Below, piece after piece: positions 1 to 4,911 of a stretch of DNA of 4,911 nucleotides (position 1 is the stretch's first letter; each line of letters begins with the position of its first letter). The stretch is from a virus (Duplodnaviria; Heunggongvirae; Uroviricota; Caudoviricetes). The stretch is from positions 1 to 4,911 of IMG/VR virus record IMGVR_UViG_2526164619_000013; one strand, 5' to 3'. The position numbers were made by a program, and so were the translations under genes. The notes under the pieces are model-generated. The model was not told the origin of the DNA, made no database searches, and saw only the letters and a list, made by a program, of their open reading frames with translations.

Positions 1-158
1 TCACCAGTCAAAACTTTTCACCAGCGTCAGCTCGCCAGCATTACGCATCGGTACAATAAATGTTTCCTGTTTCTCATTGACCGATCCTTCATCGGTGATC
101 AGCGTCAGTTGGGCGGTGGTTAATTCCATTTCGCTGCGCCCACCATAGTAGTTGATAT
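1..158 (-). pseudogene. 3' fragment (about 52 codons plus stop) of an unidentified gene whose 5' part is replaced by the IS911-like element
   Basis: The minus-strand frame is open from the IS boundary at 158 to a TGA stop at 3..1 (plus-strand tca), giving ...NINYYGGRSEMELTTAQLTLITDEGSVNEKQETFIVPMRNAGELTLVKSFDW*. The ORF-track entry 1..237 is a read-through that begins inside the IS inverted repeat. The sequence looks protein-like, but I cannot assign a family. Confidence 0.35.
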
Positions 159-1365
<1,207 letters not shown>

Positions 1366-1370
1366 ATCAC

Positions 1371-1406
1371 CTCTGTTCAGGTGGCCAAATTCAGTGTGCC
1401 ACTTCA
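1371..1406. repeat. IS911-like left terminal inverted repeat (IRL)
   Basis: Reverse complement reads TGAAGTGGCACACTGAATTTGGCCACCTGAACAGAG, the partner of 159..194. It is immediately followed (minus-strand sense) by GAGGTGAT-ATG. Confidence 0.85.
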
Positions 1407-1666
1407 GTGTGGCTGAAGCTGAAGTGCGACCGCTGATTGGCGATGTGGTGGCGATGGACTGCGCCGAAGATGTTTACCGTACCGCGCTGGAACAGACGGG
1501 GATCGATATCCAGGGTATTCACCCCGGTGCGTACCGCAGCATGGTGAAGTTTGCCGTTGAGCAGAAGCAGACGGCCAAATCCTCTCCCCGTGTGGCGATG
1601 GATCAGGCCAGCGCATCGACGTTTGCGGCAGATTTCCCCGGTGCAAAACTGAAACGAGGTTACTGA
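1407..1666 (+). pseudogene. 5'-truncated phage gene (C-terminal about 86 codons), possibly the scaffold/protease gene that precedes the head genes; truncated by the IS911-like element
   Basis: The frame is open from the IS boundary to TGA at 1664..1666 (...[85 protein letters not shown]). Its stop lies 1 nt before the next ATG, and the RBS of the next gene (GAGG 1656..1659) is embedded in its 3' end, so it is the upstream member of the operon. The track ORF 1334..1666 begins with a TTG inside the IS and is an artefact. The function is inferred from position only. Confidence 0.55.
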
Positions 1667-1667
1667 T

Positions 1668-2150
1668 ATGAATACTTTTCAGACACACATGAACCAGTAC
1701 CCGGCACCGGGTATTCCGGGGGCGTTTGCCAGTGCTAACCCTCATGCCTCGTATGTGGCGGGAGATGGCGGGCTGATTACCGGCCCTGACGGGCTGGTAA
1801 TTGCCCGGTTTGCCTGGGTAACCAAAGGTGTTGCCGCTAATAAGGGGGCCGGCGCACCGGCGGGTTTTGTTCCTCGTGACGGGCAGGCTTCCATTGTGGA
1901 ATGGCTGGCCGGGGACTCGAACACCATTTATCCGGGGCGTGAATGCACCCTGATGGTGTCGGGGGATTTCTGGGCGCTGACCACCACTACTGCGACGATC
2001 GGGCAGAAAGTATTTGCCTCACTGGCCACCGGGGAGATAGCCACGGGGGCGGCTGGCACCTCGATGGCGGGGTTTGTCGAAACCTGGTTTTCCGTTGCCA
2101 GCGCTGCGGCGGCAAAAGAAGTCATTAAGATCAGTACCTGGAGCAAATAA
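1668..2150 (+). CDS. Phage head-module protein, 160 aa (possible decoration or minor head structural protein)
   Basis: ATG at 1668 with GAGG 8 nt upstream. It is Gly/Ala/Thr-rich and its stop overlaps the next start (TAATG at 2148..2152). It sits immediately upstream of the putative major capsid gene, as a decoration gene does in lambda-like head modules. The functional assignment is inference from synteny and composition. Confidence 0.75.
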
Positions 2151-3178
2151 TGAATAAATTTAAACAGCATTATGCGACGGCAAGTCGTGACTACGGGATT
2201 ATTCTTCCCGGAGCACAGGCTTATTTGCCGAAGGAGTACGCCGCCGATTACGGACTTGCGATGGACGCGCAGCCTGCGCTGGTCACAGCGGCTAACAGCG
2301 GTATCCCTGCGTATTTCACCAATTACGTTGAGCCAGAACTGATCCGCGTGCTGGTGACGCCGATGAAAGCCGCTCAGATTCTGGGCGAAACCAAAAAAGG
2401 TGACTGGACGACACTGTCGGCACAATTCCCGATTGCAGAATCTGACGGGGAGGTGAGTTCCTACGGGGATTACAGCAACAACGGGGTGGTAAGCGTAAAC
2501 GTCAACTGGGTACCGCGCCAGAGCTATCACTTCCAGACCTTCACCGTATGGGGCGAACGTGAGCTGGAGATGTACGGCGCAGCCCGTATTGGCTGGGCGG
2601 CAGAGCTGAACGTGGCGTCAGCACTGACGCTGAATAAGTTCCAGAATAAGTCCTATTTCTACGGTATTGCCGGACTGACGAACTACGGTTTGCTGAATGA
2701 TCCGTCGTTATCTGCACCAATCACCCCGGATACCGTTGACGGTAAACTGAAGTGGGACGACAAGGACGGACAGGGCGTGTATGACGATATCGTGAAACTC
2801 TTTAAGCAACTGGTGAAACAGACTAACGGCCATATTGAGCGTACCGACAAAATGAAACTGTGCATGTCGCCGCTGGCAGAGGTGAACCTCACCAAAACAA
2901 ACCAGTACAGGGTTAACGTGTCCGATCTGCTGGCGAAAAATTTCCCGGCGATGACCATTGAAACGGCGGTGGAATACACCTCTGACGCTGGCGAGCTGGT
3001 ACAGCTTATCGCGGAGCGTCTGGGTGAACAGGATACAGGCTATTGCGCTTTCACTGAAAAAATGCGCGCCCATGCGGTAGTGGCAGATACGTCTTCCTGG
3101 AAACAGAAAAAATCCGCTGGTACCTGGGGGGCGATTATTCGCCAGCCGCTGGCGTATGCACAAATGCTGGGGGTGTGA
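2150..3178 (+). CDS. Putative phage major capsid protein, 342 aa
   Basis: ATG at 2150 overlaps the upstream stop, with GGAG at 2140..2143. It is the largest ORF of the cassette and sits where the major capsid gene sits in lambda-like head modules (about 340 aa expected). It has no obvious similarity by eye to lambda E, HK97 gp5, P2 gpN or T7 gp10, so family membership is unassigned. Confidence 0.8.
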
Positions 3179-3181
3179 GTT

Positions 3182-3529
3182 ATGGCTGAAATGGTAACAG
3201 TGGGCTGCAAACTGCCGAACGGTCTGGTGCTGGAAGTGGGTCAGAAACGGGTTCAGGTGGCAGGCTGGCGGAATAATGCGGTTAAAATTGTGGGGGGCTA
3301 TGGTCTGACGCAGGTCGATAAGGTGTTTTTTGACGCCTGGCTGGCGGAGCACGGACAGCAACCTTATGTGAAAAATGGCGTTATTTTTGCGCAGGATAAG
3401 GCGAACAGTGCAGTCTCGCAGGCTACGGAGCAGAAAGCCGTTAAATCCGGCCTTGAACCGCTGCCGCAGAAAAATCCGGCTCCGGGCGTTAACCGCAATG
3501 ATGAAGTGATGGGTAAACCTCAGGAGTAA
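3182..3529 (+). CDS. Phage head-module protein, 115 aa (possible head-tail joining or DNA-packaging accessory protein)
   Basis: ATG at 3182 lies 3 nt after the capsid stop, with a G-rich SD (GGGGGTG 3169..3175). It continues the co-oriented coupled operon. Function unknown. Confidence 0.75.
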
Positions 3530-3534
3530 ACGCT

Positions 3535-3990
3535 ATGGGTACGGTGACGTTTGACTGTCGGATGTTTGTCAGTCTGTACCCGGAGTTTTCCACGGTGACA
3601 CCGGAGCTACTGACGGCGGTGTTTAACCGGGCGACCGCGTTGTACCTGGATAACACGGACGACAGTCCGGTTACCGACCTGAAGGAGCGGGAACAGCTTC
3701 TGTTCCTGCTGGTTGCGCATCTGTGCGCATTGCGGGGGCTGGGAAACGGGAGAGACGGGCAGGCTGGTCTGGTGGGGCGTATCACCAGTGCGTCGGAAGG
3801 TTCTGTATCGGTATCGGTGGATAATAGCGGCAGTAATGATGCGTCGTGGTGGTATCTCCAGACCTCCTGGGGTGCTGACTACTGGCAGGCGACAGCGCCA
3901 TACCGCTCAATGCAGTATCATTCCGGGGGGGCACCTTCGCGATATCCGGGGCATTATTACCGGGGATACGGGAGGGGGCGTCGATGGTAA
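3535..3990 (+). CDS. Phage head-module protein, 151 aa, with a Gly/Arg/Tyr-rich C-terminal tail
   Basis: ATG at 3535 with AGGAG at 3522..3526 (8-nt spacing). The N-terminal about 75 aa look globular; the C-terminal about 75 aa are low complexity (…[82 protein letters not shown]). The stop at 3988..3990 overlaps the next gene's ATG at 3984. Confidence 0.7.
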
Positions 3991-4568
3991 ATAAAGTCAC
4001 AGGTGGCAAACAGTTCCGGCAGAAGCTGAAACAGGTTGCCGCGAACCTTTCATTGGGTAAAAAACTCAAAGTGGGTTTTCTTGAGGGAGCAACTTACCCT
4101 GACGGTACGTCAGTGGCTTATATTGCCGCAGTTCAGGAGTTTGGTGGAAGAGCGGTCATACCCGCCCGTGAGCAGACGCTCCACTTTCGCTATAACGAAA
4201 AAACGGGAGAAACCGGGCACCGCTTTGTCAAAGCCGGTAAAGGGAATTTTGTTCAGGATGTGGTTATTCCTGAGCACACGGTCACCATTCCCCCCCGTCC
4301 GTTCTTCCGTAAGATGATCGAACATAAAAGTCCCGAATGGGGCGAAAAAATGGCGACCTTATTACGGGCGAATGATTTTGATACTGCGACCGCTCTGGTG
4401 TGTATGGGAGAACATATCAAAGGGCAGTTGCAGATGTCTGTTCGCGACTGGGAAAGTCCGCCCAACGCTGCATCCACTGCCCGGCAAAAGGGTTTTAACA
4501 ACCCGCTTATTGAAACCGGACATATGATGGACAGCGTTGATTATTCTGTAGACGGGGGCAAAAAATGA
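3984..4568 (+). CDS. Phage head-module protein, 194 aa (possible head completion or head-tail connector protein)
   Basis: ATG at 3984 is preceded by GGGAGGGGG (3970..3978) and overlaps the upstream stop. Its TGA stop at 4566..4568 overlaps the next ATG (ATGA). The position corresponds to head-completion genes in lambda-like head modules. Function is inferred only. Confidence 0.78.
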
Positions 4569-4602
4569 ACTTTCACGGTATTGTTTCCGGCGCAGTACGT
4601 CG
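4565..4602 (+). pseudogene. Next operon gene, truncated after about 12 codons ([12 protein letters not shown]) by the IS1 insertion
   Basis: ATG at 4565..4567 overlaps the upstream TGA (ATGA coupling). The reading frame runs directly into the IS1 terminal inverted repeat at 4603 and then hits a stop inside IS1. Confidence 0.5.
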
Positions 4603-4625
4603 GGTAATGACTCCAACTTACTGAT
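4603..4625. repeat. IS1 terminal inverted repeat (insB-proximal end)
   Basis: The 23-bp GGTAATGACTCCAACTTACTGAT has the characteristic IS1 end. The insB stop codon (4620..4618) lies within it. Confidence 0.85.
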
Positions 4626-4911
4626 AGTGTTTTATGTTCAGATAATGCCCGATGACCTTGTCATGCAGCTCCACCGATTTTGAGAACGACAGTGACTTCC
4701 GTCCCAGCCTTGCCAGATGTTGTCTCAGATTCAGATTATGTCGCTCAATGCGCTGAGTGTAACGCTTGCTGATAACGTGCAGCTTTCCCTTCAGGCGTGA
4801 TTCATACAGCGGCCAGCCATCCGTCATCCATACCACGACCTCAAAGGCCGACAGCAGGCTCAGAAGACGCTCCAGTGTGGCCAGAGTGCGTTCACCGAAG
4901 ACGTGCGCCAC
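4618..4911 (-). CDS. insB: IS1 transposase InsB, C-terminal 97 codons (N-terminus beyond the window edge)
   Basis: Translation (V)[96 protein letters not shown] is near-identical to the IS1 InsB C-terminus, with a handful of substitutions relative to the E. coli K-12 IS1 sequence as I recall it. The leading M in the ORF track is an edge artefact. Confidence 0.9.

Follow-up and report, generated by a model that had tools for sequence, protein, structure and literature searches.

Gene content of the locus

We analysed a stretch of 4,911 nucleotides (hereafter the window), corresponding to positions 1 to 4,911 of the IMG/VR virus record IMGVR_UViG_2526164619_000013, with a focus on the segment at 1407-4602, in which five consecutive open reading frames (ORFs) encoding phage head and neck proteins lie between two different insertion sequence (IS) elements, IS911 and IS1. 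The window is 100% identical to part of contig AKMY01000053.1 of assembly GCA_000268165.1 (positions 7852-12762 of this locus, L002), and the assembly is listed as Shigella flexneri K-315 in a published strain table (PMC6397287). An earlier note, made from the sequence alone, had described the segment as an orphaned, internally intact head-gene cassette, resulting either from simple prophage decay or from retention for a reason. The features of the window are as follows (aa, amino acids):

1-158, minus strand: 3' remnant of yfaP (last ~52 codons), truncated by IS911; a 42-aa ORF is called at 1-129
159-1406, minus strand: IS911 (IS3 family), complete, 1248 bp, with orfA at 1033-1365 and orfB at 167-1006
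1407-1666, plus strand: 3' end of a DUF2213 / Pa193_gp24-type head maturation protease-scaffold gene (last 85 of 449 codons; the 5' 81% is gone)
1668-2150, plus strand: ORF1, capsid cement/decoration protein, 160 aa (assigned by Pfam and phrog)
2150-3178, plus strand: ORF2, major capsid protein, 342 aa (phrog and PDB)
3182-3529, plus strand: ORF3, conserved phage protein of unassigned function, 115 aa (phrog_2085, E=2.5e-45)
3535-3990, plus strand: ORF4, head-to-tail adaptor (DUF4054 / E217 gp27-like), 151 aa (Pfam and PDB)
3984-4568, plus strand: ORF5, neck protein, 194 aa (phrog_222)
4565-4602, plus strand: first 12 of 121 codons of the next neck gene, cut by IS1 (intact at 23158-23523 of the annotated relative L001, described below)
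4603-4911, minus strand (transposase): one end of IS1 (first 309 bp), within which both the window and its source contig end

Re-reading of the sequence bears out the ORF coordinates of the earlier note, together with its stop/start overlaps (TAATG at 2148-2152, ATGGTAA at 3984-3990 and ATGA at 4565-4568) and its Shine-Dalgarno (SD) sequences, which take the form of purine-rich SD-like motifs located 6-10 nt 5' of every start. The two flanking truncations were also correctly described, as IS911 ends exactly at 1406 and leaves the last 85 of 449 codons of the upstream gene, while IS1 starts exactly at 4603, after 12 of the 121 codons of the downstream gene. Profile searches on the proteins support the label of head cassette for the cement and major capsid genes only, given that ORF4 and ORF5 encode neck/connector proteins and that the function of ORF3 is unassigned.

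The truncated upstream gene matches phrog_2229 ('head maturation protease') at profile positions 347-427 of 428 (E=3.5e-31) and aligns with the end of the 449-aa DUF2213 protein of an intact prophage. ORF1 matches XM1_gp53_minor_capsid (PF23982, E=6e-33), Phage_cement (PF22758, the family of E217 gp24 and Pam3 gp6, E=1.6e-19) and phrog_2122 (E=1.6e-71), such that a cement gene of the E217 gp24/Pam3 gp6 family stands immediately 5' of the capsid gene, as in E217/PB1-type modules. ORF2 belongs to phrog_264 ('major head protein', E=6e-91) and is homologous to E217 gp25 and Pa193 gp26, the major capsid proteins of this type of head-neck module (PDB 9b40, Pa193 gp26 major capsid, E=7e-20; PDB 8frs, E217 major structural protein, E=6e-19). 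ORF3 has no match in Pfam or PDB, and tblastn found matches to it in 112 phage records, all of them annotated as hypothetical; in the closest sequenced phage that was checked, Klebsiella phage KP12, its homologue also directly follows the capsid gene. ORF4 matches DUF4054 (PF13262, E=2.8e-17) and the E217 head-to-tail connector gp27 (PDB 8fvh, E=5e-9), and is therefore a gp27-type adaptor of the E217/PB1-type module, with its extreme C-terminus altered by a 1-bp insertion. ORF5 matches phrog_222 ('tail completion or Neck1 protein', E=1.3e-51), and tblastn matches to it occur in 882 phages, including Pbunavirus-type Pseudomonas phages in which the gene bears this same annotation. The intact 121-aa product of the gene that follows shows a weak match to the E217_gp28 collar family (PF22755) in ten relatives (L009-L018). 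The composition profile of the window is unremarkable, and no Rfam RNA family was found within it.

The IS junctions and the chromosomal flank

The left-hand element is identifiable as IS911 by its terminal inverted repeats (TGAAGTGG...), its orfA/orfB organisation and its length of ~1250 bp, and is 99.7% identical to annotated copies of 'IS3-like element IS911 family transposase'. It is oriented opposite to the cassette. Simple insertion of IS911 yields a 3-bp target-site duplication within one continuous target. No such 3-bp duplication surrounds the element at 159-1406, where the flanking triplets are TAT on the left, in yfaP, and GTG on the right, in the phage gene. Because these flanks are unrelated loci and lack a target-site duplication, the junction points not to a simple insertion but to a later IS-mediated rearrangement, whether through recombination of IS copies with one another or through a deletion or inversion.

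The chromosomal nature of the left flank is clear: positions 1-158 match annotated yfaP of 5375 E. coli genomes at 99.4% identity, and the called product carries the Pfam domain YfaP_C. Beyond the yfaP remnant, AKMY01000053.1 continues through rcsC, rcsB, rcsD and ompC for 7.8 kb of chromosomal sequence, in which no phage DNA was found to the left of IS911, and from which terminase, portal, integrase and replication genes are all absent. The earlier note had allowed that terminase and portal genes contiguous with the window would reduce the locus to an ordinary prophage with two IS hits; leftward extension of the contig finds the yfaP remnant and the rcs-ompC genes in their place.

Within this flank, rcsC directly adjoins the 3' end of yfaP (L002 7578-7851). 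In K-12, the ato operon lies between these two genes. Because the direct adjacency is found in 1538 complete E. coli genomes, it is a common backbone variant that is unrelated to the IS event.

The IS911 copy itself carries a run of six A residues, as opposed to the seven of the reference, right after the canonical orfA ATG (window 1326-1340, a 1-bp deletion at ~1332). The canonical start is consequently out of frame, and an ATG at 1365 in the left inverted repeat opens a 110-aa OrfA instead of the 100-aa form. We considered this variant as a marker for the locus and discarded it, since the public collection contains it in 72 blocks, several times per genome and at many unrelated loci; it represents an IS911 isoform that is propagating or else a homopolymer error that recurs.

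On the right, the terminal sequence (GGTAATGACTCC...) and the IS1 transposase identify the element as IS1. Its 309 bp are 100% identical to annotated IS1 copies, and DDE_Tnp_IS1 is found on the called product. The source contig stops 17 bp past the window, and it and all contigs of the clade described below end inside IS1. The window's IS1 matches the IS1 copies of many E. coli genomes at 100% identity but the IS1A copy (35309-35614) in the prophage of L001 at only 91.5%, and two distinct IS1 isoforms are therefore in play in these genomes.

The IS junctions are not confined to K-315. Independent assemblies share both of them (L003 and L019), the IS911 junction (L004 and L007) or the IS1 junction (L006), and because of this sharing the cassette can be said to be inherited within a small clade of ~14 contigs, nearly all of which are 2-5 kb in length and end in IS elements where they are long enough to do so. 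No closed genome sharing these junctions emerged from exact-protein look-ups with the capsid protein, the 42-aa yfaP remnant, the 85- and 110-aa truncated protease ORFs and the frameshifted ORF4 as queries; apart from K-315, all matches were short draft or Logan contigs.

The source prophage family

Over its full length of 3196 bp, the segment matches 8 complete chromosomes of enteroinvasive-type E. coli at 99.6-99.8% identity, and its DNA is collinear with the corresponding part of full-length prophages. These prophages combine lambdoid early genes with an E217/PB1-type myovirus structural module. Megablast of 1407-4602 gave no match in 50,697 phage records, and at the level of 99.6-99.8% identity the family is known only as prophages; the nearest sequenced phages are temperate Klebsiella phages, whose capsid protein is 74% identical to ORF2.

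The sole fully annotated relative is strain FDAARGOS_943 (L001), in which the cassette genes stand inside a full-length prophage and in which the DNA of ORF1 and the protein of ORF5 are identical to those of the window. Its early part comprises lambdoid regulatory and replication genes, four tRNAs, a holin, a lysozyme and Rz-type lysis genes. The head genes begin with the small terminase, a 539-aa gene at the position of the large terminase (annotated as hypothetical), a DUF1073 portal, a MuF-like gene and the 449-aa DUF2213 gene, and continue with the cement, capsid, 115-aa, DUF4054, 194-aa and 121-aa proteins and a tail terminator. Sheath, tube, baseplate and tail-fibre genes follow in the 3' part, then ipaH3, and the prophage adjoins pphA/yebW, a chromosomal site different from that of the window. 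It has not itself escaped IS activity, and carries IS600 in the lysozyme gene and IS1A near the tail fibres.

Two further observations on this prophage can be recorded here. The tRNA genes form a four-gene cluster (Ile, Arg, Thr, Val) at 10289-10595, upstream of the lysis genes, and the type III secretion system effector gene ipaH3 is found at 38035-39750. With ipaH3 located just past its tail-fibre genes, this copy of the prophage is a carrier of a chromosomal ipaH gene.

The enteroinvasive-type E. coli prophages that contain this module (e.g. NZ_CP065615.1 at 832.7-870.5 kb, which carries ipaH3, CFSAN029787 and E. coli 53638) have the same gene order and the same overlaps as the segment, and genomes of this type often harbour 2-3 copies of the family. 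An exact match to the ORF5 protein is found in 1358 blocks of the public collection, many closed genomes among them, and in the ORF5-carrying relatives (including L009-L018) the order of the structural genes is unchanged while IS insertions and deletions are frequent. One such relative, L009 (CP024694.1), has an 11-bp deletion in the major capsid gene, equivalent to window positions 2996-3006, in an otherwise collinear structural module, and five others (L011, L013-L015 and L017) are damaged copies of the same family. Of the full prophage, the window has kept a single piece, which begins at codon 364 of the protease-scaffold gene and breaks off after codon 12 of the collar-like gene; IS911 and IS1 lie on either side of it, it is joined to yfaP, and its adaptor gene has an extra G.

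Separately, in several E. coli drafts represented in the DUF2213 cluster (P0126 and P0127), the protease-scaffold gene is split across contig ends between residues 335 and 351. This position is unlike that of the window, and suggests that the gene was hit independently, by a repeat or IS insertion, in another lineage.

More distant relatives are E217 and Pa193, two Pseudomonas phages (Pbunavirus) with solved virion structures, which possess homologous cement, major capsid and head-to-tail adaptor proteins; the full-length prophages additionally share collar, terminator, sheath, tube and baseplate proteins with them (PMC10329688). The sequences are distant (phmmer E-values of 1e-9 to 1e-20) and, unlike E217 and Pa193, the enterobacterial relatives are temperate and have lambdoid early genes, whereas the locus in the window is a fragment and not a phage.

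Sequence divergence and the intactness of the reading frames

The earlier note considered the intactness of the five ORFs, despite disruptions on both sides, to be the notable point of the locus. To this question we can bring an alignment of the cassette with 10 relatives from outside the window's lineage and with two clade members. Over 3196 bp, the lineage of the window has acquired 8 derived substitutions as well as a single 1-bp insertion. The substitutions comprise four synonymous changes, of which three fall in ORF2 and one in ORF3, and four nonsynonymous ones (A116V in ORF2, and Q32R, P111S and S133A in ORF4). The insertion is an extra G in the G-run at 3970-3974 of ORF4, which is present in none of the 10 outside relatives and which shifts the end of the protein from ...GRGVDGK* to ...GRGRRW*, replacing the last four residues. 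All five ORFs are thus open, as was claimed, but the cassette is not fully intact, since the end of ORF4 has been rewritten. In E217, the extended C-terminal tail of the adaptor gp27 inserts between portal subunits (PMC10329688), and for this reason the altered residues of ORF4 are presumably not obviously dispensable.

Of all the single substitutions that these ORFs could undergo, only 3.7% introduce a stop codon, and the probability that 8 random substitutions would leave all ORFs open is ~0.74. Open ORFs are therefore expected by chance at this divergence, and the openness of the cassette loses the significance that had been attached to it. Because the otherwise complete copy L009 has a deletion in its capsid gene while the orphan fragment remains open, open ORFs in this prophage family track age and not function.

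Changes that postdate the IS events can be recognised among the clade members that share the junctions. ORF5 carries the nonsynonymous change A135T in L003, L004 and L006, and in L019 (SRR066117) a 1-bp deletion in an A-run, at the equivalent of position 2393, splits the capsid gene into ORFs of 101 and 241 aa. The latter could represent real decay or a homopolymer sequencing error. No synonymous change was seen among the clade members sharing the IS junctions.

Origin and fate of the segment

Taken together, we consider it very probable that a temperate myovirus prophage left behind the segment at 1407-4602 as a young, non-functional remnant, which is bracketed by IS elements and is decaying neutrally. 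The simple prophage decay that the earlier note offered as one of its options is supported by the collinearity with full prophages at 99.6-99.8% identity, by the frameshift in ORF4 and by the missing genes, and the best-supported reading of the segment is that of inert passenger DNA between two IS elements.

Under this scenario, the lineage of S. flexneri K-315 would have received two insertions, IS911 within the protease-scaffold gene and IS1 within the gene that follows ORF5, and the five ORFs would simply be the part of the late operon enclosed by them. Recombination between two IS911 copies, or a deletion or inversion mediated by IS911, may then have removed or relocated the upstream part of the prophage, comprising most (81%) of the protease-scaffold gene together with the early and lysis genes, terminase, portal and MuF. 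Without its connection to the phage late promoter, the segment would have entered neutral decay as passenger DNA, with its ORFs still open since the time elapsed may have been too short for disabling mutations. The data show directly what the parts are, where the two IS elements join, that the left flank is chromosomal, that divergence is low and that the end of ORF4 is frameshifted; we infer the order of these events, as well as the choice between recombination and an adjacent deletion.

The segment is presumably unexpressed. In L001, the cassette genes continue a same-strand series that starts upstream of the lysis genes, and neither the window nor the 7.8 kb on its left contains the late promoter/antiterminator region that a lambdoid phage would be expected to have there. 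A search of both strands of 1250-4700 found no sigma-70-like promoter, against 2.8 expected in shuffled sequence. The locus also falls well short of a complete prophage, as its late operon lacks a promoter region and contiguous terminase, portal and full protease/scaffold genes are missing; on the left, portal, terminase and MuF are gone, and so is 81% of the protease-scaffold gene. An HK97-fold capsid protein of this type is not expected to form proper procapsids without portal and scaffold. The segment, lacking both, would not be expected to build a capsid.

Several points weigh against this interpretation. In only one draft contig, that of K-315, is yfaP seen to be linked to the cassette, across a repeat of 1.25 kb, and this link could be a misjoin. 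Had an inversion taken place, its reciprocal junction (the N-terminal 364 protease codons joined to an IS911 end) might be encountered elsewhere; it was not found among homologues of the full-length DUF2213 protein and the 40 of 98 members of its cluster that were read. On the right, tail genes may still adjoin the segment beyond IS1. The absence of a consensus promoter does not prove the absence of transcription. Finally, the ratio of nonsynonymous to synonymous substitution rates (dN/dS) for the lineage is ~0.31, which is nominally below 1; with 8 substitutions (one-sided binomial p ~0.1) it is not significantly below neutrality, and these substitutions cannot be dated relative to the IS insertions.

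Alternative explanations

The alternative that survives best, although we regard it as unlikely, is that two simple IS insertions struck an otherwise complete prophage and that the yfaP link is an assembly misjoin through the IS911 repeat. In this case the rest of the protease gene, the portal and the terminase would lie directly past IS911, and tail genes directly past IS1. All other assemblies of the clade break inside both IS elements, ~30-75 bp in, and so neither confirm nor contradict the yfaP link, and related copies with single IS hits in collinear modules are common (L011, L013 and L015). However, the K-315 contig runs continuously through the whole of IS911 into 7.8 kb of chromosome, and no contig or protein fusing a 5' protease fragment to IS911 was found among the cluster members read (40 of 98). 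Even if two simple insertions were the true history, the prophage would still have disrupted protease-scaffold and neck genes, and would be both defective and ordinary.

A second alternative, which we judge to be highly improbable, is that the head-neck genes have been kept by selection, whether in a capsid-forming satellite or an element resembling a gene transfer agent, as the earlier note had raised, as spare parts for (or a means of interference with) further copies of this prophage family, or through some other co-option. The open ORFs, the preserved SD-like motifs and overlaps and the occurrence of the same junctions in ~14 contigs could be read in this way. Yet the segment is nearly identical to and collinear with ordinary prophages, ORF openness is expected by chance at such divergence, and the segment has no integrase, replication, portal or terminase gene, no full scaffold gene and no promoter-like site. 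The mutational record argues in the same direction, given the lineage-specific frameshift at the C-terminal end of the adaptor, the three nonsynonymous changes in ORF4, the capsid frameshift in one clade member and the fact that the only other mutation since the IS events is nonsynonymous. We thus find no support for retention, there being neither accessory genes nor a promoter to accompany the frameshifted ORF4 and the nonsynonymous and frameshift changes within the clade.

A variant of this idea is that orphan capsid and neck products might act in trans, poisoning or complementing the virion assembly of related or superinfecting phages. The 2-3 copies of the prophage family that are frequently found per enteroinvasive-type genome make such interactions conceivable, and if they took place the fragment would be a selected 'spare-parts' or exclusion module and not junk; we nevertheless attach very little credence to this possibility.

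Specific forms of retention can be set aside more briefly. Satellites of the capsid-forming phage-inducible chromosomal island (cf-PICI) type and gene transfer agents resemble the locus in being chromosomal islands that have capsid and connector genes without a full phage genome, but they possess their own portal, small terminase, protease/scaffold and regulation, and satellites additionally have integrase and replication genes; the window has none of these, and is a literal excerpt of an ordinary prophage. A cf-PICI-like satellite is rejected on the lack of integrase, replication, portal and small terminase genes in the window or the 7.8 kb to its left, and a satellite distinct from its helper on the 99.7% identity of the DNA to a full-size prophage. 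A gene transfer agent is rejected on the absence of portal and terminase on the left and on the tally of 4 nonsynonymous and 4 synonymous changes and 1 frameshift, and a composite transposon because the flanking elements, IS911 of the IS3 family and IS1 of the IS1 family, are not the same IS.

Implications

Neutral decay of an IS-bracketed prophage remnant, the reading that we favour, places the segment within a kind already known, namely routine IS-driven prophage decay in S. flexneri, and its source is a prophage family that is common in Shigella and enteroinvasive E. coli. IS-linked rearrangement is documented to occur at high rates in Shigella: one study assigned 103 of 114 reconstructed inversions to Shigella branches and found the IS1, IS3, IS4 and IS91 families to be enriched throughout Shigella (PMC8072062). 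The IS-fragmented cryptic prophages of Shigella show the same disruption and rearrangement by IS1 and IS3-family elements, and the window, which does not differ from them in substance, adds one more instance. It shows IS911 and IS1 cutting up this prophage family in Shigella and relocating its pieces, a process that explains why such pieces appear as stand-alone contigs of 2-5 kb in draft assemblies. Beyond annotation its importance is small; there, it illustrates that open ORFs in a prophage fragment are no evidence of retention when divergence from intact relatives is ~0.3%.

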